DNA from: a virus
Lineage: Duplodnaviria; Caudoviricetes
Length of the DNA: 64,000 bases
IMG/VR virus record: IMGVR_UViG_3300017780_003662
Location: 880 to 64,879 of that record
Reading direction: 5' to 3' (one strand)
The translations under genes were made by a program, and so were the position numbers. Positions 3,425 to 44,246 of the stretch are shown here, in pieces; the stretch's first letter is position 1, and every line of letters begins with the position of its first letter. A model generated the notes under the pieces. It was not told the origin of the DNA. It made no database searches and saw nothing but the letters and a program-made list of their open reading frames with translations.

Positions 3425-3427
3425 TTT

Positions 3428-4798
3428 ATGGCACTTGTAGAAGCTCAACTTCCTGCGGTTCCCAGGCTGCCCAACGGCCCGACTGAGTACAATGCGGAGT
3501 GGATGGCGCAGTACTCGAACGTGCTTCGGCTGTACTTCAATCAACTTAATTACGTAGTGGGGCAACTCGTGGCGAACCAAGGCCCATACGAAGTTTATTT
3601 TAGTGGTAGCAGCATCGATGCGTTTGGTCGCCTGCGAGTTGGCACCCCCTTCACGTTGTTTGACAGCCAGAATCGCTACGTGGCGGATAACCAGTTTGAT
3701 ACATCGACAGCCACAGGCGGCACAACAACTTATCTGAGTAACGAGAGTTCCGTATCGCTTAACACCACCACGAGCTCCGGCAGTGAAGTTGTACGTCAGA
3801 CCTATCGCGTGTTTCCGTATCAACCTGGTAAGGGGCTGACGTTCCTCGCCACCTTTGTTATGGCGGCGCCGCAGACCAACCTGCGGCAGCGGGTGGGCTA
3901 CTTTAATACGCAAAACGGGGTGTTTCTTCAACAAAACGGCACCACAATTTCGTTTGTTTTGCGTTCAAACTCCCTGCCGACGCCAGGGACGCCCAGCGAT
4001 ATTCGCACAGTCAATCAAGCCGATTGGAACGTGGACCGCATGGATGGGACAGGCCCGAGCGGGCGCGTGCTGGATTTGACCAAGAACCAGATTCTGTACA
4101 TAGATTTTGAGTGGCTTGGTACAGGCGACGTTCGTTGCGGATTTTATGCTGACGGCAAACCGCAAATTTGCCACATCTTCCACAATGACAATACGCAAAC
4201 TGCAGTGTATATGCAGACGGCCATCCTGCCGGTGCGGTATGAAATCACCAATACAGGAGCGACAGCGTCTGCGTCGTCGATGAAACAGGTCTGTTCGACA
4301 GTGATCGTTGAGGGCGGGTACGAACAAGCCGTGGCTCCTCAGATTGCCCGACGCACATCGGTTTTGCCTACCATCGGCACCACGTTTTTGCCCTTGGTAT
4401 CGATCAGACTTAACAGCGCGGCATTGGGCGCGGTCGTCCTGCCTCAGCAGGTCAATGTATTCCCAACAACAATCCAGAACTACGAAATCGCGTTGGTTAA
4501 AAACTCAACGCTGACAGGCGCATCGTGGGTAGCGGGCACGTTTCAAAACGTCGATTATGATGTCACCGCCACCGCAATGACGGTAACACCTACGAATATC
4601 GTGCAGACTTTTTACCTCACAGCCTCGAGCCAAGCGGTGACGCCAACCAACCAAGTCAACATATACAACTTTGATTTGCAGTTGGGCGTGTCGTTGGCCG
4701 GAGTCAGCGATATCTACACGGTGGCAATCCGCACGGTCTCAGGTGCGACGACGGGCGATGCTGTGGGCTCGCTGTCTTTCTACGATCTGACGCAGTGA
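3428..4798 (+). CDS. Tail-associated structural protein
   Basis: N-terminal PRLP..PTEYN...NVLRLYFNQL segment fused to a DAFGRLRV.P.TLFD beta-sandwich-like domain; follows the nozzle. Confidence 0.55.
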   Translation: MALVEAQLPAVPRLPNGPTEYNAEWMAQYSNVLRLYFNQLNYVVGQLVANQGPYEVYFSGSSIDAFGRLRVGTPFTLFDSQNRYVADNQFDTSTATGGTTTYLSNESSVSLNTTTSSGSEVVRQTYRVFPYQPGKGLTFLATFVMAAPQTNLRQRVGYFNTQNGVFLQQNGTTISFVLRSNSLPTPGTPSDIRTVNQADWNVDRMDGTGPSGRVLDLTKNQILYIDFEWLGTGDVRCGFYADGKPQICHIFHNDNTQTAVYMQTAILPVRYEITNTGATASASSMKQVCSTVIVEGGYEQAVAPQIARRTSVLPTIGTTFLPLVSIRLNSAALGAVVLPQQVNVFPTTIQNYEIALVKNSTLTGASWVAGTFQNVDYDVTATAMTVTPTNIVQTFYLTASSQAVTPTNQVNIYNFDLQLGVSLAGVSDIYTVAIRTVSGATTGDAVGSLSFYDLTQ

Positions 4799-4805
4799 GG
4801 TAAGC

Positions 4806-24291: not shown

Positions 24292-24948
24292 TTATCGGTG
24301 TTCGCACCCTTCATGAGTCACCGGACAGAAACGACATAAGGGAGAAGGCTTGGCACCCCACGCTTCGTTCGTTACCGCTGACTCAATCATGCTAGCGCGT
24401 CCGGCCCACTTTGACCAGATGGTAGGCAACATATCACGCGAAAATTCTGTCTTTACTACATCCCGCGCCACAACAAATAACAGCAGTCCGGAGACGCGCG
24501 TTATCTCAGGGTAGTGCGCCATCACCATAGCCGCCATGAGCTCGAGCTGGTCGGGATCTGCAAACCGAGCAGACTTGCCGGTTTTGTAATCCGCGACTCT
24601 TGCACGACTCTTGTGGAGCGCCAAGAAGTCAGGCACGCCCCGAAACCATACGTCGGCATCAAAGAAATCGCATGGGCTGAAGTCCTTGCGGATGCCAAGT
24701 TTTTGCTCGCACAGCAGCGTGCCCTTAATAGACTTAAGCGGCGCGACGTACGGCTCGAACGCTTGGAACTGCTCGGGCAGGGGCTTGCCGTCCCGGATGT
24801 ATTCTTCGAAAGCTTTGTGCACGGCTGTGCCGTACAGCGTGGCCTCGGTGTCTTGAGATTTAAACTTCTTGAGGATGCGCACCTCGTGATAACGCCGCGG
24901 GCACCCCTCGAAATCTTTAACTGCTGAGTAAGAATGAGCGAGCTTCAT
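24292..24948 (-). CDS. PD-(D/E)XK exonuclease (RecB/Cas4-like)
   Basis: HSYS...CPRRY, GTAVH, PDF..., DYKTGK, QLELMA, C..CP...C. Confidence 0.85.
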   Translation of the reverse strand: MKLAHSYSAVKDFEGCPRRYHEVRILKKFKSQDTEATLYGTAVHKAFEEYIRDGKPLPEQFQAFEPYVAPLKSIKGTLLCEQKLGIRKDFSPCDFFDADVWFRGVPDFLALHKSRARVADYKTGKSARFADPDQLELMAAMVMAHYPEITRVSGLLLFVVARDVVKTEFSRDMLPTIWSKWAGRASMIESAVTNEAWGAKPSPLCRFCPVTHEGCEHR

Positions 24949-24979: not shown

Positions 24980-26857
24980 CTAACAATCCCCGTAAGACCC
25001 ACCATAACCCGCTTCGCATGACAGCGGCAACCCGACTGCCCACTTCGGGTTCCACGACATAGACTCGATGACATACGCCATCGCTTGCTCAGCCTCGGCC
25101 TCCGGGGCCACACACGCTACGGAGTCATGTACAGTCAACACCGTTGGATAGCGCCGGTTGATACGCAGCATCTGCTCAGCCACGATACACCGGGCGACAG
25201 CCTGGCAAAAATTCTCAACACACAGGCCGCCGTACACGCGGGACGGCAGCCCCTTGGAGGTGTAGCGCCACTCGGGCTTGCCCTCGTCGTTGTACTCGCG
25301 CCGCAGCTCAGAGTACTGTAGGTGCAGGCCGTTAGGCAGGGTGAGCCCCCGGCCCGGCACAACACGCACAAGCCCCGGCACATCGACGACCATCTCTTGC
25401 CCCGCATACAGCGCCTCGATAGCCCGGCTGGCAGAGTCCCAGAGGTACGGGATGCGGGCGTAGGTTGTGCGGTATGCGTTGATGATGCGCTTGGCCTCGG
25501 CCTCAGATACCTCGACACCGGCCATGGACTTGAGAAACGCTTTAAGCTTGCCGTGGCCAACGCCGTAGCCTGCCCCCAGAACTACTACTTTACCTACTTG
25601 ACGCTGAGCCTTGTCGATCTGGTCGGCGGCCACGCCATAGATGTGGCTGGCCATGATCTTGTACACGTCCTGCTTGTCTCGGAAAGCTTGCACGAGATCG
25701 TCCTGGCCGGCGAGCCACGCCAGGGTGCGGGCCTCGATCTGGGCGGAGTCGCAGTCGATCACGATGTGGCCAGGGGGCGCCTTGATAGCACGCTTGAGTG
25801 CCTTGGCGTACGGCCCGCGGGAGGGCAGGTTCTGCAGGTTCACCGAGTCCTGCCCGCTGAACCGGCCAGTGTGGGCGCCGTAGTACCGCAGGGGCACAGG
25901 GAACGCGCCGCGTGTGGCCATGCCGATGAACCGCTCGGTGCGAGTCTCCTCGAGCGTGGTCTTGTTGCCAAGGCGCGCGGCGACCAGTGCCTGCACGCGC
26001 ACGTCGGGGTGTTCCTCAAGAGCCTTGAAGCCCTCATCAGTCTTGGCAAAGGCATACGCTTGCTTGCCGGTGGTGGGGCTGACCTTCATGGGAGGCTCGA
26101 CGCCCAGCTCGCGCAGCAGGGTGGCGAACTTGTCGTTAGACATGAGGAGCTTCTTGATGTCGGCGGAGCAGATAAGCGCAGCGTTGTCGGGGTCTGCCAT
26201 GACAAGCTGATCGCGCACGGCATCGAGCAGCTGCTGTTTGTGCTCACGCACTGCCTGGAGGTGCCGCACCAGCAGATCACTGTCGAGCACCAACCGCGGC
26301 TCGACGAACATACGCAGGGTGAGGTCGATAAGCTTGAGCTCCTGCTTAGGGAAGCCCATGCCCAGATAGCGCATGAACAGCGTGTAGGTGAGCTCGACGT
26401 CGTTGATGCAGTACTCGGCGTACCGCGCGAGCTCATCAGCCGAGAAATCGTCATAGTGCTTGCCCAGCGCGTTAAGCACTTCAGTGCCCTTGGCCCCGAT
26501 GCCGTAGCGCGTAGCTTGTGCCGACAGGCTGTGCGACTTCTCGTGCGGGGCGAGCGCGCGGGACATGCCTAGCGTGTCCGCCCAGGCCAGCGGCCGCACG
26601 CCGTAGTGCCACGCCAGTATGGCAGCATCGAACGCGGTGTTCTGGCACACCACGATCTTGTCCGACCAGTCTATGTTGGCCAGCGCCGCGGCTACCTCGG
26701 GCTTGGGGTACCACTGGGTCACAGCGTCATTAAGCTTGATGGCTATACCGATGACTTCGAACCGAGGGTCGCGCACGTACGCTTCGGTCGTAAGCTTGGT
26801 TAAGCTGAACTCCCGGTCATAATAAGACTCTAGGTCAAGCGTCAGGATCTTCGGCAT
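24980..26857 (-). CDS. polA: DNA polymerase, family A, with 3'-5' exonuclease
   Basis: TLDLES, QNTAFD, DSAQIEARTLAW (motif A), RQVGKVVVLGAGYG (motif B), TVHDS (motif C). Confidence 0.95.
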   Translation of the reverse strand: MPKILTLDLESYYDREFSLTKLTTEAYVRDPRFEVIGIAIKLNDAVTQWYPKPEVAAALANIDWSDKIVVCQNTAFDAAILAWHYGVRPLAWADTLGMSRALAPHEKSHSLSAQATRYGIGAKGTEVLNALGKHYDDFSADELARYAEYCINDVELTYTLFMRYLGMGFPKQELKLIDLTLRMFVEPRLVLDSDLLVRHLQAVREHKQQLLDAVRDQLVMADPDNAALICSADIKKLLMSNDKFATLLRELGVEPPMKVSPTTGKQAYAFAKTDEGFKALEEHPDVRVQALVAARLGNKTTLEETRTERFIGMATRGAFPVPLRYYGAHTGRFSGQDSVNLQNLPSRGPYAKALKRAIKAPPGHIVIDCDSAQIEARTLAWLAGQDDLVQAFRDKQDVYKIMASHIYGVAADQIDKAQRQVGKVVVLGAGYGVGHGKLKAFLKSMAGVEVSEAEAKRIINAYRTTYARIPYLWDSASRAIEALYAGQEMVVDVPGLVRVVPGRGLTLPNGLHLQYSELRREYNDEGKPEWRYTSKGLPSRVYGGLCVENFCQAVARCIVAEQMLRINRRYPTVLTVHDSVACVAPEAEAEQAMAYVIESMSWNPKWAVGLPLSCEAGYGGSYGDC

Positions 26858-26871
26858 TTTGGTTTCTAACG

Positions 26872-27219
26872 TTAGAAGTCGTCGGGGGTATCGGCATCAG
26901 CCAGCGGGCGCCCAAACTCTCGCCAGTTCGACTGGACAGTGTCTAAATTGTCCAGCAAGTCTAAATTAGACTCGTTGATGACAAGTGCCAGCCCGCCGGC
27001 AACCTCGATCTTCTCAAGGTTGCGCAGCTGGAGCTGAGTGGGTTTGTTCTTGCCCGCCTTGCACTCTATCCCAACAAACCGGCTGCGGTAGCAGGCCAGA
27101 ATGTCAGGAGTGCCGTTATTAGCAAACTGGCCGCCAATGTAATTGACCGCATACGCGTTGGCTTTCTTGAGTTTGGCATGGACTTTAGCCTTGACCTTAC
27201 TCTCTGGCGTGGTTGCCAT
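26872..27219 (-). CDS. VRR-NUC family nuclease (Holliday-junction resolvase-like)
   Basis: ESKVK, GTPDILAC, IECKAGKNKPTQLQ. Confidence 0.85.
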   Translation of the reverse strand: MATTPESKVKAKVHAKLKKANAYAVNYIGGQFANNGTPDILACYRSRFVGIECKAGKNKPTQLQLRNLEKIEVAGGLALVINESNLDLLDNLDTVQSNWREFGRPLADADTPDDF

Positions 27220-27583
27220 TCTCGATCTCGATTAGTTTGTCCAGATAGTGCCGGGCTTTCTCCAGGTCCTGCACCCCGCCCTTCTCACGAAAGCGCATGA
27301 TGTACGCCAGCGCGCTACCATCAAAGAACCCCATGCCGTTACGCTCGATGATCTCCCAGGGCTGGATGGCAAGCCGCGTGTAGTGATCTCCGCCAACCTG
27401 CCGGGTGTCGACTGAAGGTAGTGTGGGTGCGGGTGTGGGCGCGTCCGGCACCGTGTCTTGCGCCAGCGCGCGCTTCGCGGCGTAGACCGTTACTCGCGAT
27501 ATCTTAAGCTTCTGTGCCAGCTTGGCCACGGACAAGTCGGGGTTCTTTTCTAGCGCTTGTCTGACGCGGTCTTTAGCATTCAT
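27197..27583 (-). CDS. HTH fused to a DUF3310-like domain
   Basis: LSVAKLAQKLKISRVTVY; RQVGGDHY...IQPW...GSALAYIMR...DLEKARHYLDKLIE. Confidence 0.72.
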   Translation of the reverse strand: MNAKDRVRQALEKNPDLSVAKLAQKLKISRVTVYAAKRALAQDTVPDAPTPAPTLPSVDTRQVGGDHYTRLAIQPWEIIERNGMGFFDGSALAYIMRFREKGGVQDLEKARHYLDKLIEIENGNHARE

Positions 27584-29462: not shown

Positions 29463-29654
29463 TCATTTCTCTTTACTCCTCTGCTTCTCATCACGCCGGC
29501 CTGCCTCAAAACCTTTCAGCCAAGCATCAGCAAGCATCCACTGAAGCGTAAATCCAGGCTCACCGCGCTCGCGCTGCGTGTAGTTGGTACGCTCCCATAG
29601 CTGCGCCAGTTTCTCGCCCATATCGCGGGCATGTGTTCGCTTTGGTGTTTTCAT
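29463..29654 (-). CDS. Hypothetical protein
   Basis: ATGA-coupled to the upstream gene. Confidence 0.5.
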   Translation of the reverse strand: MKTPKRTHARDMGEKLAQLWERTNYTQRERGEPGFTLQWMLADAWLKGFEAGRRDEKQRSKEK

Positions 29655-29830
29655 TTTTTCCTAAGATCCTCAGCGCACTTTAACCAGCCTTCTTCTTCAA
29701 GCCACTGAACACACGCCTCGCGCTCGGCAGCGGCGACAAGGGCGGCGAAACGGCGCAGCGATCCGTTGTCTCCATCAAAGCCAACAAATCCAGCCTCCCG
29801 CGCCATGCGGGTAATGTCGTCACGGTTCAT
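29651..29830 (-). CDS. MNRDDI.RMAREAG...AEREAC family small protein
   Basis: Paralog of 30120..30422. Confidence 0.6.
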   Translation of the reverse strand: MNRDDITRMAREAGFVGFDGDNGSLRRFAALVAAAEREACVQWLEEEGWLKCAEDLRKK

Positions 29831-30123
29831 TTCTCTTCCCTTGCTGGGATAGCGCTGGCGCAACTTGATGTTACGGCCGTGTTCGGAAGGCTCCAGCATC
29901 GCTTAGCGTTTAGTTGCGTTTGCTTGTCCAACCGCAAGTCGTACACCTCCATGATGCGTTGCATATCCCCCGGAGCCTTGACCATGGTAATGCAGTCCTG
30001 ATCCGTGTCCGTGAACACCGGGTAGTCCTCATGGTCGAACGTGTCGCACACGATGACCATGTGCCGCTTGCTTTGCTCTACGCCACTGTCAAACCATCTC
30101 TCAATCATTTCTCTCGTGGTCAT
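29827..30123 (-). CDS. Hypothetical protein (IVCDTFDHEDYPV)
   Basis: ATGA overlaps at both ends. Confidence 0.6.
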   Translation of the reverse strand: MTTREMIERWFDSGVEQSKRHMVIVCDTFDHEDYPVFTDTDQDCITMVKAPGDMQRIMEVYDLRLDKQTQLNAKRCWSLPNTAVTSSCASAIPAREEK

Positions 30124-30422
30124 TTCGCTCCCCTTGCGCGGATGGCGGCTGCTACGCCCGCTTTGTTTCGTCCTGGCTCGGTAGCCAACTTCAGACACTC
30201 CTCGCGCTCGGCCTTTACGCCGCCATCCCACCCGCACCGATAACATTCGGCAATTTCAAACGCCCTGTGCTCGCGCTCGGCAGCAGCGCCAGCGGCAAAG
30301 GCTAGTTCAGCAAACTTCTCAAACCCAGTCTCAGCCAACGCCAGCATCCACACTTCGTCATTGATGCAGCTTCGTTCTGCGCCGGCTTGTCGGGCCATGC
30401 GAATAATTTCATCGCGCTTCAT
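30120..30422 (-). CDS. MKRDEIIRMARQAG...AERE...AAAIRARG family small protein
   Basis: Paralog of 29651..29830; internal AERE duplication. Confidence 0.62.
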   Translation of the reverse strand: MKRDEIIRMARQAGAERSCINDEVWMLALAETGFEKFAELAFAAGAAAEREHRAFEIAECYRCGWDGGVKAEREECLKLATEPGRNKAGVAAAIRARGAK

Positions 30423-30595
30423 TTCTCTCCCCTCAGCCGCTCATACTCAGGCAACAGCGCTTTTGCTTCCTCTGGCATAACCATAATCCACACGATCATC
30501 TTGTGAAGGTCTAGCGGCAGCGTCCCGTGTTCAATCTCAATGCTGCTCTTGCCTGGGATGCTGGCTTTGTATTTGGTTTTGATGGTTTCGCTCAC
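30419..30595 (-). CDS. Hypothetical protein (58 aa)
   Basis: Hand translation MSETIKTKYK...RGEK; 4-nt overlaps at both ends. Confidence 0.55.
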   Translation of the reverse strand: MSETIKTKYKASIPGKSSIEIEHGTLPLDLHKMIVWIMVMPEEAKALLPEYERLRGEK

Positions 30596-30750
30596 GAGTT
30601 CTTCTCCTTCAACGGCTCACTCACAATCCGCCCGCACCACCGGCAATCACGATGGTAATAGCCGTCGTAAATCCATGCCGCACGCGGGAATGGGTGGTTG
30701 ATCTTCTTGCATAGCCACACGCCAAAACGGTACAGAATCGGCTCATCCAA
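30592..30750 (-). CDS. Small C/H/CxxC putative Zn-binding protein ending LKEKNS
   Basis: TTG start after GGAG; WLC...H...CRWCG; DUF1660-like spacing. Confidence 0.55.
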   Translation of the reverse strand: MDEPILYRFGVWLCKKINHPFPRAAWIYDGYYHRDCRWCGRIVSEPLKEKNS

Positions 30751-30844
30751 CGTTTTTCTCCCATTTCAATATCGCCCAGCTAATCAGCCCACCGAACAAA
30801 CCAACTCCGACTATTGCCAGCAACTCAAAACAATCACTTGTCAT
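30743..30844 (-). CDS. 33-aa single-TM peptide
   Basis: MTSDCFELLAIVGVGLFGGLISWAILKWEKNVG; AAGGAG upstream. Confidence 0.45.
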   Translation of the reverse strand: MTSDCFELLAIVGVGLFGGLISWAILKWEKNVG

Positions 30845-31268
30845 CGTTCTTCTCCTTCAACTTGACTTCGATGGCGCGGGCAAATTCATGCAACTGGCTC
30901 ATGCTGAATCCATCAAAGTACAGGTCTTCAATCTCCTCATCCGTCAGCCCAATCCACTCGCGGGAGGGTGCGGCGGCCATGTCAAGCAAACTGCGAGCGT
31001 GGTCGCGCTCATAAGGCGCATGGCACCATCCAAACCAAACCGCCATTGGATGCGACATAAGAGATCGGGCATCGTCTGGCGTAACGTTGCGATAAACCAC
31101 AGTCATCGTCCGATCATTCGCCACCGGCTCCTGCTTCTCTGCCTCAGCTATCGCAGAGCGGAGGGTGACAATGACTTCTGAATGTGCGTCCAAGTCCTTA
31201 TCTGAGTTGGAATAAGGATGCGATTTGTTCAACGCCTCAAGCGCCTGTTTCATCGCTTCAATACTCAC
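30834..31268 (-). CDS. Framework-array protein (MSIEAMKQALEAL...KLKEKN)
   Basis: All four conserved blocks present. Confidence 0.75.
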   Translation of the reverse strand: MSIEAMKQALEALNKSHPYSNSDKDLDAHSEVIVTLRSAIAEAEKQEPVANDRTMTVVYRNVTPDDARSLMSHPMAVWFGWCHAPYERDHARSLLDMAAAPSREWIGLTDEEIEDLYFDGFSMSQLHEFARAIEVKLKEKNDDK

Positions 31269-31696
31269 GCGTTCTTCTCCTTCAACTTGGCTTCGATGAT
31301 GTCGCGCAACTTCAACAATGAGTCGTCACACACCTCGCCATCTGGCGTCCACCAGTGCATTTCCTTTGGGTCGTCGTCGTTGTCGTAATCCTCGTGAATG
31401 TCAAACCCAGCCTGATACGCAGCGACCATTACATCCTCATCCGTCAGTCCAGCCCACTCGCGGCGGGGTGGCACGAGAATCGTCTGTATCTGGCTGTCGG
31501 CACTACGCTGCCCGCGGTAGACGTTGCCGTCGCCGTAGCAGTCCATCTCCTGCTGCACATCCTGTCCGGATGCCTCAGCTATCGCAGCGCGGAGGGCGTT
31601 AAAAGCGCGATATTGAAGTACGCGCCATTCAGCTTTGGACATATCATGCTTGCTGTCCAACGCCTCAAGCGCCATCTTCATTGCTTCTATACTCAC
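31265..31696 (-). CDS. Framework-array protein
   Basis: GTG start in a GTGA overlap; four conserved blocks. Confidence 0.75.
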   Translation of the reverse strand: MSIEAMKMALEALDSKHDMSKAEWRVLQYRAFNALRAAIAEASGQDVQQEMDCYGDGNVYRGQRSADSQIQTILVPPRREWAGLTDEDVMVAAYQAGFDIHEDYDNDDDPKEMHWWTPDGEVCDDSLLKLRDIIEAKLKEKNA

Positions 31697-32136
31697 GAGT
31701 TCTTCTCCTTCAACTTGGCTTCGATCTGGTCGAACAGCTTGCGGGTGTAGCCTTTGATGGGCGTATCGCCCCACGGCCCGATGATTTCTTTTATCTCCTC
31801 ATCCGTCAGCCCAGCCCACTCGCGGCGGGGTGGGACAACTTCCCATATCTTTTCTGGAAACGGCTCCTTGTATATCGACGCAGGATCAATCCGTTTCCCG
31901 CCTAGTGTGATGCCCATGCCGTAGATGGCTTGATCCGCCACAGCAGTCTCAATCGCTTGCTGCACATCCGTAAGCTGCTGCATGGCAGCCTCAGTTATCG
32001 CGGCGCGGAGGGCTGCGCGCACAGGGCCGTTGCGATCAACGTAGTCATCGCAGTGCGAACAACGATGGCCGGGGTCGTCGTGCTCGTCCGAGCAAGTCAG
32101 CGCCTCAAGCGCTTGCTTCATTGCTTCTATACTCAC
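31693..32136 (-). CDS. Framework-array protein
   Basis: Four conserved blocks; Cys/His-rich first variable segment. Confidence 0.75.
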   Translation of the reverse strand: MSIEAMKQALEALTCSDEHDDPGHRCSHCDDYVDRNGPVRAALRAAITEAAMQQLTDVQQAIETAVADQAIYGMGITLGGKRIDPASIYKEPFPEKIWEVVPPRREWAGLTDEEIKEIIGPWGDTPIKGYTRKLFDQIEAKLKEKNS

Positions 32137-32357
32137 GCGTTCTTCTCCTTCATCAAATCACCGAGGGTGTTAGCAAACCGAGTCAATTGGTAAATCACAA
32201 CCTCATGCGACATACCAAGATGAAAACTCATGCCAGACTCTCGCATCGCTTTGATAACGTCGTTCTTTGCCAGCCCAACCCACGGCTTTTCCAGACACGA
32301 CACACAATAAAGCGCCCATCCGTCCTGCTTGCTTTTGCCACACTCATCGCACGTCAT
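32133..32357 (-). CDS. Partial framework-array protein with CxxC-CxxC N-terminus
   Basis: CDEC...CVSC, PWVGL, KEKNA. Confidence 0.6.
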   Translation of the reverse strand: MTCDECGKSKQDGWALYCVSCLEKPWVGLAKNDVIKAMRESGMSFHLGMSHEVVIYQLTRFANTLGDLMKEKNA

Positions 32358-32566
32358 GCTTCCACCTGAAGTAGTCTGAGCTTCATGCGCTCAAGCAACC
32401 AGAGAACCGTCCCACCATCTGCGTAAGATGACGCGAAATATTCTTCGCCATCAGGTGTCCAACCCATAATCGCCACGCCTTCCAGTTGCCCGATAGCTGA
32501 CTCAAGAATTGCATCTGGCGGCAAATCAAGTTTGGTAATGCCGGTAAATGGAATGACTTTACTCAC
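32354..32566 (-). CDS. Hypothetical protein (70 aa)
   Basis: GW..DGEEYFASS..DGGTVLWLLER; coupled overlaps. Confidence 0.65.
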   Translation of the reverse strand: MSKVIPFTGITKLDLPPDAILESAIGQLEGVAIMGWTPDGEEYFASSYADGGTVLWLLERMKLRLLQVEA

Positions 32567-32928
32567 GAGTTCTTCTCCTTCAGCTTGGCTTCGATGGCTT
32601 GCGGATTCCGTTTGATCGTGAATTGAAGCGTCCCATTGTTGTAGGACTGGAAAGCATCAATCCTCATGTCACTTGGCAGCATCATGCGGCACGACTCATT
32701 CCACCATTCGACCCGCCAATTCTTTCCGTTTTTTGGCTCACGCAGGTCGTCTGCCGTCAGCCCAACCCACTCAAGATTTGGACGCAACGGCAGGAGTAGC
32801 TTTGATACGTAAACCGAAATGTCGTCGCACCCCGGTTGCCATCTCTGTGCTGCCGTTTCAATGTTGTCCCAGTGATAGGTTGTGGTGCCATCTGCGTTAA
32901 TGCGACAAATCTCACTGTTTTCTGTCAT
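32563..32928 (-). CDS. Partial framework-array protein (blocks 3 and 4 only)
   Basis: EWVGLT...AIEAKLKEKNS. Confidence 0.65.
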   Translation of the reverse strand: MTENSEICRINADGTTTYHWDNIETAAQRWQPGCDDISVYVSKLLLPLRPNLEWVGLTADDLREPKNGKNWRVEWWNESCRMMLPSDMRIDAFQSYNNGTLQFTIKRNPQAIEAKLKEKNS

Positions 32929-33113
32929 GTGTTGCGCTCCTTAAGCTTTGCAGCAATGTCTCTTTCAATCATCAGCCGCTCTGTTTGTGCATCAACAGGT
33001 ACACCCCACCTGCCGCATTCGCGGCATTGCCAGTTGATGCGCCCGTAGCAATCCCGTTTTATGTCCCCGCCGTGGAACCAACTGCACCACTTATCCATTA
33101 GCCAACTAATCAC
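32925..33113 (-). CDS. Small C/H/CxxC protein ending KLKERNT
   Basis: WC.WFH...CRECG; paralog-like to 30592..30750. Confidence 0.6.
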   Translation of the reverse strand: MISWLMDKWCSWFHGGDIKRDCYGRINWQCRECGRWGVPVDAQTERLMIERDIAAKLKERNT

Positions 33114-33481
33114 GGGTTCTTCTCCTTTAACTTGGCTTCAATGGCGCGGGCAAAGTCGTAGACTCCGCTGGTTTCGTAGCTTTCAATCTGGCAAGCCAGC
33201 ATTGCGTCAGCCGTTTTCGCAATCTCCTCATCCGTCAGCCCAACCCACTCGCGGCGGGGTGGGTGGGTGTATAACGCCATGCCAGTAGGCAGCACAACGT
33301 GCTCTATCGGCCTCACGACGAGATGCCCGTCGTAGTAGCCTGTTACGTAGGCGACCGGCTCCTGTTTTTCTGCCTCAGCTATCGCGGCACGGAGGGCGGT
33401 GACGGCGTCACGTTGTTTTTGCATGCGGTCAGCGGTTAATTCCAGCGCCTCCAATGCCATCTTCATAGCTTCGATGCTCAC
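33110..33481 (-). CDS. Framework-array protein
   Basis: Four conserved blocks. Confidence 0.75.
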   Translation of the reverse strand: MSIEAMKMALEALELTADRMQKQRDAVTALRAAIAEAEKQEPVAYVTGYYDGHLVVRPIEHVVLPTGMALYTHPPRREWVGLTDEEIAKTADAMLACQIESYETSGVYDFARAIEAKLKEKNP

Positions 33482-33855
33482 GAGTTTTGCTCCTTCAGAT
33501 GCGCGTCCACCGCCCGCAATACGCCCTTGCCTAACTCGTCCAAGCCAAGCTCCTCAGACCAAAAGTTCAGGTCGTCTTCAGTTAGCCCAACCCACTCGCG
33601 GCGAGGGGGGTGGGTGTAGTACGGAATTTCTTCCAGCCCAAGCTCGCGCGCTTCTTCTGGATAAATGGCTGGCCTCTGCTCCATCTCCTGCTGCACATCC
33701 GTAAGCCGCTGCATCGCTGCCTCAGCTATCGCGGCGCGGAGGGCATCAATGGCTTTGTGTTGTTGGTGCAGTTGGGCTTTGACTCCGTAATCCTCAATAA
33801 CCGGCAAATTCCATTCCAACGCCGCAAGTGCTTGCTTCATGGCATCAAGACTCAT
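33478..33855 (-). CDS. Framework-array protein
   Basis: Four conserved blocks (slightly diverged). Confidence 0.75.
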   Translation of the reverse strand: MSLDAMKQALAALEWNLPVIEDYGVKAQLHQQHKAIDALRAAIAEAAMQRLTDVQQEMEQRPAIYPEEARELGLEEIPYYTHPPRREWVGLTEDDLNFWSEELGLDELGKGVLRAVDAHLKEQNS

Positions 33856-34145
33856 ATCAATCCCGCCATCCGTTGTTGAACAAGGCTCTCAGCTTCCGCC
33901 ACTGCTGACTTTCCTTCCTTGGCTTCCAGGATCCGCTTGTAGTGCTGCCATTTGGACGCCTCCCACTGAAGATGGGCCATCGTCGGTTGCTGGTTGATGA
34001 TGACGGCGTGCTGATAATCGACGGTGCCTTGCAGGTTAGTTACTCGGGCCTGAAGGCTTTCGTTTTCTTGTTTCAGCTCGCCATAGGTCAAACGCTTAAT
34101 TTGTTCAGATGGCAATGTGGCTTGTTGATTAGGTTGCACGTTCAT
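33852..34145 (-). CDS. Hypothetical coiled-coil protein
   Basis: ATGA overlaps at both ends. Confidence 0.55.
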   Translation of the reverse strand: MNVQPNQQATLPSEQIKRLTYGELKQENESLQARVTNLQGTVDYQHAVIINQQPTMAHLQWEASKWQHYKRILEAKEGKSAVAEAESLVQQRMAGLI

Positions 34146-34318
34146 GCTTGCTCCTTGGGTGGGGGTGTGAACTGACTAAGTGCGGCTTTGACAAGCTCGC
34201 GGGCGTGGCTGGCATCTTCTCTCCCGGCTGCGGTCTGTAAGTGGGCTCCGGAATGCACAGCGATACCGAGGATACTGTCAGCTGCCTTTAGTGCCTTCAT
34301 CACCAACTCCAGATTCAT
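34142..34318 (-). CDS. Hypothetical protein (58 aa)
   Basis: Hand translation MNLELVMKALKAADSILG...KEQA. Confidence 0.5.
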   Translation of the reverse strand: MNLELVMKALKAADSILGIAVHSGAHLQTAAGREDASHARELVKAALSQFTPPPKEQA

Positions 34319-34970: not shown

Positions 34971-35550
34971 CGTCGTCTACCTCGAAAGTTACTTCGTTAG
35001 CGTCACAAGAGTCCATGAACTGTTCTTCAGATGTTTCCCACTCGTAGGCTTCCTCAAGTTGACGTGCTAGATCACTACACAGGTCACGTATGAATGGCTT
35101 AGCGGCTTCGTAAGGGTCGTGCTGCACCCACATCTCCTTCAACATCTCGACCCAATCATCTAGCGGCATGTCCGCAAACACACCGAGCGGATTGGTGTAA
35201 AGCGTGCTTTCCTGTAGCTCGAAGTCTATGTTCCCGCGGTGCGTTGTACTGAGCGACGCGTAGCTGCCGTCCTCGACCACGGCCAGATACAACGGATAGC
35301 ACTTCTCGTGCAGCCCAAGCCGCTCCATGATCGGCGCCAAGCTCGCACGCCCGGCGAACGCCGCTTGCGTGTGCGCTAGATTAAAAGTTGGCTTGTTGAG
35401 TCTGTGCAGCCCAAGAATCTTAGTTTCGTCTACGAATGTGTCCCACACTGGGTACCACCAATCATCCGGTATGTAACTGGTCCATTTCCAGTACTCCTCA
35501 AGGTAGCGTTTGTAGTCATGCTCCTTCAGCTCGTGTACTGTCATCTCCAT
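34960..35550 (-). CDS. Acidic, Trp-rich early protein
   Basis: 196 aa; AYEWETSEEQFMDSCDANEVTF C-terminus. Confidence 0.6.
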   Translation of the reverse strand: MEMTVHELKEHDYKRYLEEYWKWTSYIPDDWWYPVWDTFVDETKILGLHRLNKPTFNLAHTQAAFAGRASLAPIMERLGLHEKCYPLYLAVVEDGSYASLSTTHRGNIDFELQESTLYTNPLGVFADMPLDDWVEMLKEMWVQHDPYEAAKPFIRDLCSDLARQLEEAYEWETSEEQFMDSCDANEVTFEVDDDEI

Positions 35551-35923
35551 CGTCGGCTCCTTGGTTAAATTCGCGTGATACCTCGTACATCAATGACGCA
35601 GCGGGGATGTCCAGCTCTGCCATTAACTTCACGGCGTCAGGCGGAGTGTCCATCATGTACCCCACGTCGTCCCACGCCAGGAGCGTGGTCGCCGCTGTGG
35701 CCAGGGCCGGGTGGCTAGACCGCAGCCGCCTCGCTATCCGCCACACCTCCTCCAGCGCCGTGTCTCGGTGCAGCTCATGTATCAGTCGCAGCGTCTCCGC
35801 CCACTCAAGGTTCGGCGGGAACATAAACCGCCACCGTTGCGGGTTATCCCGAGCATGCTGGAACAGCCGCTGGATATACTCCGAGTTAGGCAGTGGGCGC
35901 CACGCTCGCTCCCAGCTCAGCAT
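35516..35923 (-). CDS. Tandem paralog 3 (W..LPN..YI.R...WDD..Y..DTPP.AV.L)
   Basis: Shares terminal motifs with the two upstream paralogs. Confidence 0.65.
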   Translation of the reverse strand: MLSWERAWRPLPNSEYIQRLFQHARDNPQRWRFMFPPNLEWAETLRLIHELHRDTALEEVWRIARRLRSSHPALATAATTLLAWDDVGYMMDTPPDAVKLMAELDIPAASLMYEVSREFNQGADDGDDSTRAEGA

Positions 35924-35924
35924 G

Positions 35925-36320
35925 TCAGTCCCCTTCGTACATAGCGATAACGGCTGGCAACAGCAGAACAGCTGCGTTGTTGCCCGTAGCTGCCAGCAGT
36001 CGCACGACGGTCGGCGGCGTGTCGAGCATGTAGGCACAGTCGTCGTCCGCGGCCAGTGCGGTGACCGCCGTTCTAACAAACTCTTTCACCGCGAGACGAT
36101 CTGAAGGCAGCCACTCCGTAGCGGCGCCTCGGGCAGCGTCGCACTGATCTACTCGCTCGGAATCAAACAACTGATCGCGAAAGTCATTCAGTGCATTCGC
36201 TCGCACCTCCACGGGTACGTTGTACGCCGCCCGCTGCCACTTGTTAAGGTGCGCTTGAGCGTGTGCCAGCACCCGGTCAATATGCTTGGCGTTGGGCAAG
36301 TCGTCCCATGCGTTGTCCAT
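35925..36320 (-). CDS. Tandem paralog 2 (MDNAWDDLPNAKHIDRVLA...LLLPAVIAMYEGD)
   Basis: Termini identical to 36322..36705. Confidence 0.7.
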   Translation of the reverse strand: MDNAWDDLPNAKHIDRVLAHAQAHLNKWQRAAYNVPVEVRANALNDFRDQLFDSERVDQCDAARGAATEWLPSDRLAVKEFVRTAVTALAADDDCAYMLDTPPTVVRLLAATGNNAAVLLLPAVIAMYEGD

Positions 36321-36321
36321 G

Positions 36322-36705
36322 TCAGTCCCCTTCGTACATAGCGATAACGGCTGGCAGTAGCAGGACTGCGGCGGGATTGCCAACGGCCTTCAGCAGGCGA
36401 ACCGCGTCTGGATGCAGGTCAAGGATGTAAGCACAGTCATCCCATGAGACTAGCGCCACGGCTCCCATACCAACACCTCTCGAGCCATGCCAAACCGCAT
36501 CCCAAATGTCGCCGCGAGATATACCGTGAGCCGCATCCCAAGAAGCCCCAGAAGCCGCATCCCAAGAAGCCTCCCAAGCTGCGCCCCACTCAGGCGTCCG
36601 AGCAGCCAGCCGCATAGCGGCCCACTCTGCCGGTTTAGCTCGTCCGCGTGCCAGCACCCGGTCAATATGCTTGGCGTTGGGCAAGTCGTCCCATGCGTTG
36701 TCCAT
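36322..36705 (-). CDS. Tandem paralog 1 (MDNAWDDLPNAKHIDRVLA...; WDAA-repeat middle)
   Basis: Termini identical to 35925..36320. Confidence 0.7.
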   Translation of the reverse strand: MDNAWDDLPNAKHIDRVLARGRAKPAEWAAMRLAARTPEWGAAWEASWDAASGASWDAAHGISRGDIWDAVWHGSRGVGMGAVALVSWDDCAYILDLHPDAVRLLKAVGNPAAVLLLPAVIAMYEGD

Positions 36706-36706
36706 G

Positions 36707-37867
36707 TCAGTCTCCGATGTACACCGTCGTGCCGTGAGGGCTTCTAACGTTAGAAGTTACGGCCCACAGCACAGGGTAGCCAGGGGGCTGGCCGAACGGA
36801 GTCTCGCCGTCAGTCAGCACTACACAGGCGTCGGGCTTGATCTGGTGCTTGAGCAGGTAATCGAACGCTACAGGCAGGTCGGTGCCTCCGCCTCCGCGGG
36901 GCTTGAGCTCGGCCACGGCAAACTGCCCGTTCTCGAATGTCTGGTGGGAGGCCACCTGGGTGTCCACGTACAGCACGTCAATAGTAGCGGGGTTAACCTG
37001 CTCGATAATGGCAGCCAGCTCCGAGACGAACCGCGTCGCTTCAGTCGAGTTAAAGCACGAGCCGCTCGTGTCCAGCACGACAGCCAAGCGCGTCATAGTA
37101 GTGCCCTGCATGGACGGCATATAGATGTCATGCGCCAAGTACCGTCTGCTAGGCCGACGCCACGTAGACTCGTCGGTGCCTGCGCAGTGCTCGCTCACGA
37201 ACTCACGCAGTGCCCTGCGCCAGTCGACCTTGGGGTGCAGCAAGCCGTCGAACCCCAGGTCCGCAGTCAGCCCGAGGGCCTGCGCCCGGCGCTTGGCAAG
37301 TATCTCACCTTGGCGTAGCGCCTGGTCTATCTGCCGCAGCCGGACCTGGTCGAGCTCCTGCTGGGCTTGAGCGTCGGACGGGTCGCCGTCCACAGCCTCC
37401 CAGTCGTGGTCATCGAGCCCACCGGCATCGGGCGGGGGGTTCTCCTTGAGGTGCTTGTATATCTGGATCACTGACCAGCCGTGGTACTGCGGGTCGGGCT
37501 GCACGCCGACAGCTGGCATGGACAGAAACCCCTCGCCGTTGTCCATCTCGATCAGCGATAGATTCACGAAGTGGTCGGCGGCGATGTTAGCCAGCCGCGA
37601 GTCCTCTCTCCACAGTGTGCGCCACACCACGTTGTGCCGGTACGCCTTGTGCTGCTGCTCGTGCAGGATGAGCAGGCGCAGCTGAGGGTCCGTGAAATCT
37701 TTGAAAAACTCCGGGTTAAAGTACGTGTTCCACCCGTCCGTGCAGGCTGTCCGCACGTCGGTGGTCAGCTTGGTGGTCCCGCATGCCATGACCCCGCTGT
37801 ACCGGCAGAACCTCGGGTGCCGCATGATAGAGATACGCGCCTTGTTGAACCTGTCCGTTGTATTCAT
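36707..37867 (-). CDS. HExxH metallopeptidase-like + VWA domain protein (DUF2201-like)
   Basis: ACTDG, LHEQQH, NIAADHFVN; MIDAS DTSGS, GGGTD, VLTDG. Confidence 0.85.
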   Translation of the reverse strand: MNTTDRFNKARISIMRHPRFCRYSGVMACGTTKLTTDVRTACTDGWNTYFNPEFFKDFTDPQLRLLILHEQQHKAYRHNVVWRTLWREDSRLANIAADHFVNLSLIEMDNGEGFLSMPAVGVQPDPQYHGWSVIQIYKHLKENPPPDAGGLDDHDWEAVDGDPSDAQAQQELDQVRLRQIDQALRQGEILAKRRAQALGLTADLGFDGLLHPKVDWRRALREFVSEHCAGTDESTWRRPSRRYLAHDIYMPSMQGTTMTRLAVVLDTSGSCFNSTEATRFVSELAAIIEQVNPATIDVLYVDTQVASHQTFENGQFAVAELKPRGGGGTDLPVAFDYLLKHQIKPDACVVLTDGETPFGQPPGYPVLWAVTSNVRSPHGTTVYIGD

Positions 37868-37909: not shown

Positions 37910-38305
37910 TTAGAATCGGTAGTACCAGTCCTCACCTGCTATCTCGATGATGCTGTAGTCGCTGGCTACGTTCTTGGCGGTCTGCTCCCAGTCCACCACG
38001 ACGTACCAGGGCAAGTTACTAGGTATGTCGCCGCAGTCCTCAAGCATCTGCTGCACGTAGTCCTCCCAGTGCCCGCCTGCAACGAGGTAGTCCGCGTCGC
38101 CTATCTCCTCGACGATGTCCAGCAGCATGCGCAGCTCGATACCCTCGGGCTGGTTCTTCTCCCATACCTCGATGGCCTCCTCCCATGCGTCGGAGTCCTC
38201 GATCTCATCGAGCCCAGTCTCCGCCATAAACGAGTCGCGCTCGTCAGCCAGCTCGTCGATCCGGGCATTTATCTCATCCTTGGTGACAGTGTCTTGGTTA
38301 AACAC
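37910..38305 (-). CDS. Highly acidic protein, possible DNA mimic / antirestriction protein
   Basis: About 36 D/E vs 7 K/R in 131 aa (hand count); LPWYVVVDWEQTAKNVASDY resembles the ArdA C-terminus. Confidence 0.5.
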   Translation of the reverse strand: MFNQDTVTKDEINARIDELADERDSFMAETGLDEIEDSDAWEEAIEVWEKNQPEGIELRMLLDIVEEIGDADYLVAGGHWEDYVQQMLEDCGDIPSNLPWYVVVDWEQTAKNVASDYSIIEIAGEDWYYRF

Positions 38306-39485: not shown

Positions 39486-40541
39486 TCAGAATAGTTTGCC
39501 AAGCTCAGCGGCTTTCTTGCGGAACGCCGCGTTGGCGCAGCCCATGGGGGCCTTGGTGCGGTCACCTGCTAGTGACGTGACGAACACAGCCGTTGCCTCG
39601 AACGCGTCCCACCTGTTGACGTAGGCCATGATGGCGTCCAGGGTGTCCGCCCGCGCCTCCGCCACTAACTGAAACGCCAAGATAAAGTAACCCGCTGTGT
39701 CCTTGGGCAGTGGCGCAAGCGCAGGACTGTCCAGGATAGTGCGCACCGGCGGCAGCTTGTCGGACACACGCAGCAGGGCGTCCATGTCCCGAGCGGCGCT
39801 CTCACCCAAGGTGCCGATGAGCGCAGGTAGTGTCGCCTCACCTAGCGCATGGCGGTGCCGGACGATGTGAGAGGCATGGGCCAGGCTGCGAGGGCTACAG
39901 AACGCACGCACGTTGCCAGTGCGAGGGTTAAATATGTACGGGTTCTTGGTGTCGGGGTTGTTTGCGTAACACTCGAACACCTGAGAGTACTGCTCCGCGA
40001 ACGCGCAGACCTCCGCAGCCACGTTGTTGTCCTGAGCCCACTGCAGCCACTCGCCTGACGTCGGGTTGGCCAGCGGTATAACTGTCATGCGGTTGTACAC
40101 GTGGGCAGGTATGTTGTCCCCCACCCCGTCAGTGTCCAGGTTAGTCGTAGCGAACACGATACTGCCAACGGGCAGGAGGTGGTCGCCCAACCGACGCTCA
40201 AGGATGACAGGCAGCAACATGTTGAGCACAGGCCGTGGCGCCTTACCCAGCTCATCTAACATTAGAAGCACAGGCCGTGGCTGGTGCACACCAAACCGAG
40301 TGCTTGGCGCGTATGACGTAGTGGGCGTGGCGGTGTCCCGGTTAATCACAGGCAGGCCCAGGTCGCCCAGGTCCAGGTTAGCGCAGTCGACATAGCACGG
40401 GTGATAGTCCGGCATGTGCCGGGCAAGGGTGTGCAGGATGCTCGACTTGCCGATGCCAGGCTGGCCCCGCAGGAGGATAGTATTAGTGTGCCCGCAGGTC
40501 CGGATAAGGGTCACCGCTTGGGCAAGGTTGATAGCAGTCAT
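39486..40541 (-). CDS. MoxR-like AAA+ ATPase
   Basis: Walker A GQPGIGKS, Walker B MLDE, sensor-I ATTN, R-finger NRM, SPRS. Confidence 0.85.
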   Translation of the reverse strand: MTAINLAQAVTLIRTCGHTNTILLRGQPGIGKSSILHTLARHMPDYHPCYVDCANLDLGDLGLPVINRDTATPTTSYAPSTRFGVHQPRPVLLMLDELGKAPRPVLNMLLPVILERRLGDHLLPVGSIVFATTNLDTDGVGDNIPAHVYNRMTVIPLANPTSGEWLQWAQDNNVAAEVCAFAEQYSQVFECYANNPDTKNPYIFNPRTGNVRAFCSPRSLAHASHIVRHRHALGEATLPALIGTLGESAARDMDALLRVSDKLPPVRTILDSPALAPLPKDTAGYFILAFQLVAEARADTLDAIMAYVNRWDAFEATAVFVTSLAGDRTKAPMGCANAAFRKKAAELGKLF

Positions 40542-41907: not shown

Positions 41908-41936
41908 ATTATAGCATATATTTTACTCTTTGTCAA
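41908..41936 (-). promoter_or_regulatory. Consensus sigma70 promoter
   Basis: TTGACA-17 bp-TATAAT with extended -10 TG. Confidence 0.9.
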
Positions 41937-42257: not shown

Positions 42258-42286
42258 AGTATAACACAGACAATACGGGTTGTCAA
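42258..42286 (-). promoter_or_regulatory. Sigma70 promoter
   Basis: TTGACA-17 bp-TATACT with extended -10 TG. Confidence 0.85.
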
Positions 42287-44217: not shown

Positions 44218-44246
44218 ATCATACGCTACCCTTGACGCTTTGTCAA
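44218..44246 (-). promoter_or_regulatory. Sigma70 promoter
   Basis: TTGACA-17 bp-TATGAT; -35 lies in the inverted repeat TTGAC-gcttt-GTCAA. Confidence 0.85.

Follow-up and report, generated by a model that had tools for sequence, protein, structure and literature searches.

A translationally coupled array of small phage genes whose conserved helices and coupling junctions probably double as crossover sites

Why would a row of small phage genes keep the same short blocks from copy to copy while the segments between the blocks bear no relation to one another? The question is raised by the IMG/VR virus record IMGVR_UViG_3300017780_003662 (Duplodnaviria; Caudoviricetes), a 64,879-bp record with direct terminal repeats that is rated 100% complete. 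The stretch analysed, here called the window, comprises its bases 880-64879 (64,000 nt), and positions are those of the window unless another locus is named. Eleven small open reading frames (ORFs; g1 to g11, Table 1) cover positions 33855-30592 of the minus strand end to end, most neighbours overlapping by 4 nt. A preliminary description had noted four constant blocks (C1 to C4) separated by three variable segments (V1 to V3), and had read the blocks as recombination handles and as a helical scaffold for variable inserts, the whole forming a combinatorial library of early effectors. The results below bear this out in part: the array is probably a translationally coupled cluster of tandem paralogs, in which the conserved helices and the coupling junction have also served as crossover sites in the course of evolution.

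The five full genes of the preliminary description (g1, g2, g7, g8 and g9) were all found on the minus strand where they had been placed, each containing C1, C2, C3 and C4. The partial members were also as described: C3 and C4 (together, the C module) are present in g4 and, in degenerate form, in g6, while g3 and g11 have the C4 tail only. A further ORF of 33 aa, g10 (30743-30844), absent from that description, likewise ends in EKN. A repeat search recovered nine direct-repeat families in the array, with repeats of 21-106 nt; the C3 block was represented by 5-7 copies, the C4 block by 6-7 and the C2 block by four, and C2 together with its tail formed a 66-nt repeat (89% identity). The end of C4 and the C1 of the following gene make up a single conserved junction of ∼60 nt, of which a 57-nt form is present in five copies, four of them 84-100% identical. 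The spacing of g7, g8 and g9 is regular (428-440 nt), and a 106-nt junction region is common to them. The variable segments behaved differently from the blocks. In local alignments against shuffled controls, no pair of V1 segments could be aligned above the controls, and V2 and V3 were similar only where two copies had the same type of C2 tail (DVQQ or EKQEPVA), to which a FARA stretch before C4 in two copies must be added. Save for these tail types and this stretch, the segments are thus unrelated between copies, as had been claimed.

The C4 tail has a second meaning, which the preliminary description did not mention: it is a unit made of the Shine-Dalgarno box and start of the downstream gene. 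At eight of the 12 junctions, the upstream gene ends in Leu/Met-Lys-Glu-Lys/Arg/Gln-Asn, followed by one further residue and the stop codon. The corresponding DNA consists of AAGGAG, AAGAAC, one or two more bases, and a GTG or ATG start codon that overlaps the TGA stop. The sequence AAGGAGAAGAAC occurs seven times without mismatch, always on the minus strand and between 30598 and 33127, against 0.23 occurrences expected. Judged from these sequences, LKEKN is the in-frame reading of AAGGAGAAGAAC, that is, of a Shine-Dalgarno box plus spacer located 7-8 nt before the start of the next gene. Where g9 overruns the start of g10 by three codons, the distance from box to ATG is unchanged. In the unrelated g10, the Glu-Lys-Asn ending comes from a GGGAG box placed before the TTG start of g11, and g3, g10 and g11 are unrelated genes with only the tail in common. 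For g8, the most likely start is the GTG at 31696, which overlaps the upstream stop, rather than 31774.

The same arrangement was found in other phages. The next start was overlapped as NTGA by 124 of 162 distinct C-module ends, and for 169 of 207 distinct tails a start codon lay 1-2 nt after the Asn codon and opened an ORF of at least 30 aa. This position held whether one or six residues preceded the stop codon, and the identical dodecamer was used in 100 of the 207 tails. The fixed distance between the Asn codon and the start shows that the invariant part is a nucleotide unit composed of Shine-Dalgarno box, spacer and start. The array genes share with these relatives a C module at the extreme C-terminus that overlaps a downstream start.

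The array proteins belong to a very large set. Searches with g2 returned 3457 metagenomic homologs (E ≤ 1e-3) and searches with g7 returned 1082 (E ≤ 1e-6), essentially none of them with a meaningful name or Pfam domain. Scans of all members against Pfam, PHROGs and NCBIfam identified no meaningful family, the sole match being that of g5 to phrog_11040; a search of the ESM Atlas gave only unnamed viral clusters, and a literature search on the motifs revealed nothing relevant. Similarity to this unnamed family, whose proteins consist of an N-terminal alpha-hairpin, a linker and a C-terminal alpha-hairpin with a KLKEKN end, was significant over the full length; the family profile hidden Markov model (HMM) matched g1, g2, g7, g8 and g9 at 1e-26 to 1e-56, and g4 at 8.5e-5. 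The same four blocks appear in the family consensus, together with a middle element of the EKQEPVA... LYT.PP type.

To describe its modularity, HMMs for the N hairpin (N), the middle segment (M) and the C module (C) were run on 160 other phage loci and the window (161 sources), 115 of which gave matches. Of these, 62 had a single copy, 35 had two, 12 had three and four had four; one locus had five and one, the window, had six, the largest array; two to five copies were thus found in 52 of the 114 other loci with matches. The architectures were NC (80 cases), C (73), MC (17), N (10), NMC (8) and NM (5). The 48-aa C module of g7, used alone, matched 415 representative clusters at E ≤ 1e-3 and 234 at E ≤ 1e-10. 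Among the matches listed, it was typically 75-95% identical and formed the very C-terminus of proteins 61-288 aa long, joined to N-terminal partners as different as Lar zinc ribbons, R67-type dihydrofolate reductase, DUF551, Cro/C1 helix-turn-helix domains (HTH_3) and WDGH. Some payload domains were sandwiched between the N hairpin and the C module. The many tandem loci and the free combination of modules indicate that the framework-plus-variable design is a property of the family and not of this array; the view that the ordered architecture is peculiar to the array was therefore abandoned, since it is a common tandem trait of a very large phage family. Locus L009 also encodes (4462-5223) a 253-aa relative in which a C3-type motif is present three times, an internal repetition of the start of the C module.

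AlphaFold models of g2 and g7 were built with the family alignments. In the g2 model (predicted local distance difference test, pLDDT, 75.7; predicted template modelling score 0.38) helices span residues 3-16 (C1), 21-38 (C2), 84-97 (after C3) and 105-121 (C4), with a weak beta-hairpin in between. The g7 model (pLDDT 75.3) has helices at 3-18, 37-72 (C2 plus the DVQQ tail), 112-119 and 132-146. In both models the confidence between the helices is low, and the helices fall on C1 to C4, which suggests that the constant blocks form two alpha-hairpins and that the variable parts are loops or linkers. The proposal of a helical framework thus agrees with the models, in which the four predicted helices coincide with the four blocks. 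Foldseek searches against the PDB gave nothing at E ≤ 0.001, only generic helical hairpins, those against BFVD only uncharacterised proteins of uncultured phages, and a sequence search of the PDB only designed helical repeats at E > 0.03. The hairpins might serve as oligomerisation or docking modules that present variable loops or payload domains, and the proteins might be dispensable early accessory factors, possibly with anti-defence functions; both suggestions are made with low confidence. From the genomic context one may speculate about an anti-defence or host-takeover role for the array as a whole.

Cys/His-rich stretches with CxxC pairs were seen in the V1 segment of g7 (31990-32090), in g6 (32290-32357), in g3 (32925-33113) and in g11 (30592-30750), and g3 and g11 show a marginal mutual similarity (E 0.012). 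This composition suggests that the Cys/His-rich variable segments and tail-only genes may be small zinc-binding inserts. A metagenomic relative, P0324, consists of a Lar zinc ribbon (38.8 bits, cut-off 28.6) fused to a g7-type C module, an arrangement resembled by g6, in which a CxxC...CxxC N-terminus is followed by the C module. No protein of the window matched the Lar model (Lar_restr_allev, PF14354), with g6, g3 and g11 giving no match at E ≤ 1, and Lar is but one of several payloads.

Have the blocks been reassorted? C1 contains either a Gln or a Met codon (Q/M), and C2 either a DVQQ or an EKQEPVA tail; all four combinations are present in the array, as the preliminary description had stated. 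Four characters group the copies in ways that contradict one another: the Q/M codon (2-3 nucleotide changes), the C2-tail type, a YTHPP stretch preceding C3 and the FARA stretch preceding C4. When the four-gamete test was applied to the strictly shared blocks (126 nt), it was failed by 14 of 21 pairs of biallelic informative sites. Across 85 distinct NC proteins, the distances between N modules and those between C modules showed almost no correlation (Mantel r 0.11). The closest relatives of the window modules are mostly found in other phages, and in different phages for N and C; for the C modules of g7 and g8, the closest relative is in each case the other. All four Q/M and tail combinations also occurred outside the window, in 26, 4, 3 and 2 cases, so that the reassortment need not have taken place in this array and may predate it. 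Of the proposed crossover between copies, the reassortment was therefore borne out, while the place of the event was not.

Comparison with relatives pointed in the same direction. Simple duplication and drift would be expected to leave the same genes in the same order in related genomes; the relatives were found to differ in array content. In those with a 78-82% identical polymerase, the flanking genes are in order, but what lies between the homologs of 34142-34318 and 27197-27583 varies. Four to five members are found there in L009, and one each in L008 and L007 (L007 also keeps homologs of g5 and g6 upstream of its member); L081 and L010 have only N-type ORFs. The core genes of these relatives are 66-76% identical in DNA, and the blocks match many-to-many, at 90-100% over 31-66 nt. 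Longer matches end at block boundaries. g11 is 92% identical to its L009 counterpart over 170 nt (30592-30761), a match bounded by its two junctions, with differing neighbours; the N module of g8 has an 87% match in L010 over 142 nt (31573-31714), from the junction to the end of C2; and the N-terminal half of g4 shows 80% identity over 206 nt (32746-32951), from the junction to C3. The C modules of g8 and g7 find 84% and 86% identical DNA in L100 and L120, respectively. Over 178 loci, matches of at least 80% were concentrated on the blocks (up to 49 per bin), and none fell in the V segments. In an unrelated contig of 45% G+C (GC) content, L184 (IMGVR_UViG_3300048694_000106), junction DNA was 84-89% identical over 54-70 nt; its reverse strand (3039-4107) contains three tandem family genes, one of them a zinc ribbon plus C module like g6, and it also encodes a T7-like primase-helicase and polymerase. 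The relation between the GC content of family genes and that of their host loci (slope 0.41) was considered as evidence of horizontal flux and set aside, since conserved residues alone damp GC variation.

The age of the copies bears on how such exchange should be understood. The whole-module comparison is unusable as a selection test based on nonsynonymous and synonymous differences (pN/pS), since the HMM columns include unrelated V1 and V3 residues, and was used solely for the synonymous difference, which between window copies was 0.45-0.53. This indicates that the copies are old paralogs. Codon identity over the HMM columns was 0.73 in the window and 0.72 for paralog pairs elsewhere, versus 0.54-0.61 between loci; at degenerate block positions with the same residue it was 0.75 in the array, against 0.39 expected from the codon usage of the phage, and the rare Ile codon ATA is used in all five C2 copies. 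For one pair of g7-type C modules, the ratio of nonsynonymous to synonymous substitution rates (dN/dS) was 0.05, with a dS of 0.66. Such a ratio indicates that the blocks are conserved as protein, from which much of their DNA identity follows.

A mechanism that would connect these observations can be outlined. Each full protein would consist of an N-terminal alpha-hairpin (the C1 and C2 helices), a variable linker and a C-terminal alpha-hairpin in which C3 caps and starts the third helix and C4 is the fourth. Selection at the protein level would keep the helices and, as a by-product, these would remain as short islands of high DNA identity (20-70 nt, 85-100%) amid DNA that cannot be aligned. 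Homologous recombination at the islands, both between copies and between co-infecting phages, would swap modules and whole genes in register, and its outcome would be reassorted block variants and arrays that differ among relatives. Recombination at the blocks would accordingly be the presumed cause of the reticulate pattern, and the setting of the array is best read as a hyperplastic part of an early operon. Several points weigh against this account. The strictly shared blocks offer only nine informative sites, and homoplasy could explain part of the four-gamete signal. Identical amino acids would account for most of the DNA identity of the blocks, so that selection of the blocks as recombination sites need not be invoked. 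Fold searches returned generic helical hairpins only (best Z 5.3 in the wide VIA search), searches of the genome for annealing proteins of the RecT, ERF and Sak4 types gave nothing above cut-off, and the early timing would follow solely from promoter-like sites and gene order.

The alternatives differ in what they make of the blocks. Had the array arisen by plain tandem duplication and divergence, with helices under purifying selection, drifting loops and no recombination at all, the regular spacing of g7, g8 and g9, their 106-nt common junction region and the mutual proximity of the g7 and g8 C modules would be expected, the more so because loops of small helical proteins evolve fast. This history is nevertheless hard to reconcile with multi-nucleotide characters (Q/M codon, tail type, YTHPP and FARA) that contradict one another, with module-level orthologs that have different partners (87% identical DNA in L010, 84% in L100 and 86% in L120), with a Mantel r of 0.11, or with the presence of the same C module on hundreds of unrelated N-terminal parts; we hold it to be quite improbable. 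The opposite view, that of the preliminary description, makes the array a dedicated library, free of reverse transcriptase, in which the blocks are selected as recombination handles and new effector variants appear at an appreciable rate in the course of infection cycles. The reverse-transcriptase-free part of this claim holds, there being no match to PF00078 in the complete 64.9-kb genome, and reassorted block variants, high-identity DNA islands flanking unrelated segments, the largest array among 161 sources, a codon identity higher within than between genomes, and a location in the early region beside an ArdA-like gene (below the Pfam cut-off) would all agree with it. The old copies, with their synonymous difference of 0.45-0.53, speak for evolutionary mosaicism rather than for an active generator. 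Moreover, other phages have these combinations too, the N and C modules are closer to modules of other phages than to those of the array copies, the supposed handles are imperfect and short, searches of the genome revealed no dedicated recombinase, and the blocks are conserved at the protein level with synonymous change left free. A library of this kind is as improbable, in our judgement, as recombination-free duplication.

A closer competitor places the emphasis on the gene ends, which would primarily be a portable junction for the in-register insertion or exchange of any small ORF in the early operons of unrelated phages, the hairpins being tolerated caps and not the part with the function. 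Junction DNA that is 84-89% identical over 54-70 nt in an unrelated 45%-GC contig with its own three-gene array fits this well, as do the g11 copy that is 92% identical in L009 with the match ending at the junctions and differing neighbours, the tail found alone on unrelated genes, the location of the C module at the extreme C-terminus among the matches listed, and the payload domains between N and C hairpins. A dN/dS of 0.05 and ∼90% residue identity over a 45-aa C module, with free synonymous change, argue instead for a protein function; many C-module proteins lie outside arrays, and the DNA identity is near that predicted from identical residues. We regard this reading as unlikely. The related claim that the conserved gene ends form a portable, self-contained junction, serving as a recombination linker across unrelated phages and allowing payloads to be inserted, duplicated or swapped in register without an integrase, seems to us doubtful, if a little less so. 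The last alternative is technical, namely that an assembler joined the genes of several phages at the repeats. The record is metagenome-assembled and the array bears repeats, but these are imperfect and of at most 106 nt, similar arrays lie at the same genomic position in relatives, and exact copies of the g1, g2, g4, g8 and g9 proteins are present on independent Logan contigs (g8 and g9 each on a 1476-nt contig). Exact copies on independent short assemblies make misassembly unlikely, and with all points taken together it can be given next to no credence. Coupled tandem paralogs exchanging parts at helices and junctions over evolutionary time thus remain the probable explanation.

Among known systems, the hyperplastic regions of T4-type phages contain regulatory cassettes termed PeSLs (Arbiol et al. 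2010, PMC2839356; Comeau et al. 2014, PMC4122927). PeSLs are non-coding units made of a promoter and a stem-loop terminator, for which mini-circles were demonstrated (PMC2839356; PMC4122927). PeSL-mediated shuffling (PMC2839356) is, by analogy, the closest system described. In both cases, short conserved motifs lie at the boundaries of small, non-essential and mostly unknown early genes, close relatives differ by insertion, deletion or replacement between the motifs, and recombination at the motifs is the proposed cause. The array has the conserved motif flanking ORFs that vary between relatives; it lacks a sigma-70 promoter and stem-loop at each junction. Unlike a PeSL, the array junction is coding (protein termini) and carries a Shine-Dalgarno box and start, with neither promoter nor terminator inside the array. 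The modular theory that Susskind and Botstein put forward in 1978 reportedly held that conserved boundary linkers would direct homologous module exchange between phages; to our knowledge, such linkers have mostly not been found in lambdoid phages (HK97/HK022/HK620). The boundary in the array is, by comparison, a recognisable 57-nt repeat that recurs in unrelated phages. Translational coupling commonly involves overlapping stop and start codons (ATGA, GTGA) and a Shine-Dalgarno box inside the upstream coding sequence, for example at trp operon junctions. The array follows this scheme, with AAGGAG 7-8 nt ahead of a start codon overlapping the stop of the upstream gene, but differs from it in that thousands of homologs keep the signal in a single frame, where it is seen as the KLKEKN motif. 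Diversity-generating retroelements also vary phage accessory proteins in localised segments while the scaffold stays constant; the array differs from them in having no reverse transcriptase and no adenine-specific pattern, whole unrelated segments being replaced. No template/variable repeat pair differing at adenines was found among its repeats, which are the constant blocks, while the variable segments cannot be aligned and are of unequal length.

The minus-strand genes of the window run from ∼41.3 kb down to 17.6 kb. A pattern scan located three strong sigma-70-like sites upstream of the array (Table 1), and neither promoter-like nor credible terminator-like sites at its junctions. This suggests that the array lies within a long leftward polycistronic early transcript; by gene order, it would belong to a long polycistronic arm of early or middle timing, and it precedes the replication genes. 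Downstream of it are encoded a primase, an SNF2 helicase and the polymerase and nuclease of Table 1. Its upstream neighbours encode a MoxR-type ATPase, a DUF2201 VWA/metallopeptidase protein, an NinX-like protein and a weakly ArdA-like protein. The DUF2201 VWA-like/metallopeptidase protein and the MoxR-type AAA_5 ATPase are encoded at 36707-37867 and 39486-40541; the PHROGs label 'HNH endonuclease' on the former was unsupported by the Pfam result. The 131-aa protein encoded at 37910-38305 gave a weak match to ArdA antirestriction proteins (E 4e-5, 24.7 bits, below the cut-off of 27).

Table 1. Array genes, junction elements and selected features of the window
Feature	Position	Strand	Description
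g1	33478-33855	minus	Full member; C1+C2 N hairpin, DVQQ-type tail, C module; most divergent copy; ends LKEQN
g2	33110-33481	minus	Full canonical member; N hairpin, EKQEPVA + beta-hairpin middle, C module
g3	32925-33113	minus	Cys-rich, 62 aa; only C4 tail (KLKERN) and junction in common
g4	32563-32928	minus	C module (C3+C4) on unrelated N-terminal part
g5	32354-32566	minus	Unrelated inserted gene, phrog_11040; L007 ortholog at same position
g6	32133-32357	minus	CxxC-x11-CxxC N-terminus, degenerate C module, tail MKEKN
g7	31693-32136	minus	Full member; widespread type of C module (C-terminus of at least 234 distinct protein clusters)
g8	31265-31696	minus	Full member; start GTG 31696 (most likely) overlaps g7 stop
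g9	30834-31268	minus	Full member; EKQEPVA tail; extends 3 codons beyond g10 start
g10	30743-30844	minus	33-aa hydrophobic, single-helix-like peptide ending EKNVG; g11 TTG start at standard distance from GGGAG box
g11	30592-30750	minus	Cys/His-rich, 52 aa; LKEKN tail only
Seven exact AAGGAGAAGAAC boxes	30598, 30846, 31271, 31699, 32139, 32569, 33116	minus	Each 1-2 nt before next start codon
57-nt junction cassette, reference copy	31656-31712	minus	End of C4, Shine-Dalgarno, GTGA stop/start overlap, C1
Other 57-nt junction copies	31228-31284, 32096-32152, 33441-33497, 33815-33871	minus	
Consensus sigma-70-like promoter	41908-41936	minus	12/12 consensus match; upstream of array; pattern match only
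Similar sigma-70-like sites	42258-42286 and 44218-44246	minus	Pattern match only
Family-A DNA polymerase	24980-26857		Downstream of array
PD-(D/E)XK nuclease	24292-24948		Adjoins polymerase; sole recombination-related function detected in genome

Two further sets of small genes were seen nearby. At 35516-36723 lies a second small tandem set with near-identical junctions and, as in the main array, conserved ends and differing middles; it contains an 86-nt repeat (36253-36338 versus 36638-36723, 91% identity) and a 124-nt repeat (35921-36044 versus 36318-36441, 76%). Just downstream of the array, 30120-30422 and 29651-29899 form a pair of small paralogs with a common 14-residue N-terminus (71% identical) and an AERE.C stretch; homologs of this pair are present in L007, L008, L009, L010 and L081. 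No RNA family of Rfam matched the window. Megablast gave no match to isolated phages, and with tblastn the matches came from five uncultured 'Manatee Spring' phages. Genome collections yielded few matches; these were metagenome bins, mostly of freshwater Burkholderiales (Rhodoferax, Polynucleobacter, Polaromonas and Comamonadaceae), which are a likely pointer to the host range of the family.

The analysis delineates a very large family of phage early proteins, uncharacterised and outside the Pfam, PHROG and NCBIfam models, and the array offers a natural example of short conserved coding blocks that mark the reshuffling points of phage accessory genes. The most conserved peptide motif of the family is a ribosome-binding site read in frame, which calls for caution when function is predicted from motifs. 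If the portable junction proved true, it would be a coding-sequence counterpart of PeSL and integron cassettes and a concrete example of the linkers of the modular theory. If the junction is a preferred crossover site, this would explain how small genes are gained and exchanged in register in hyperplastic early regions, and would provide a handle for accessory genes, possibly with anti-defence functions, in uncultured phages.

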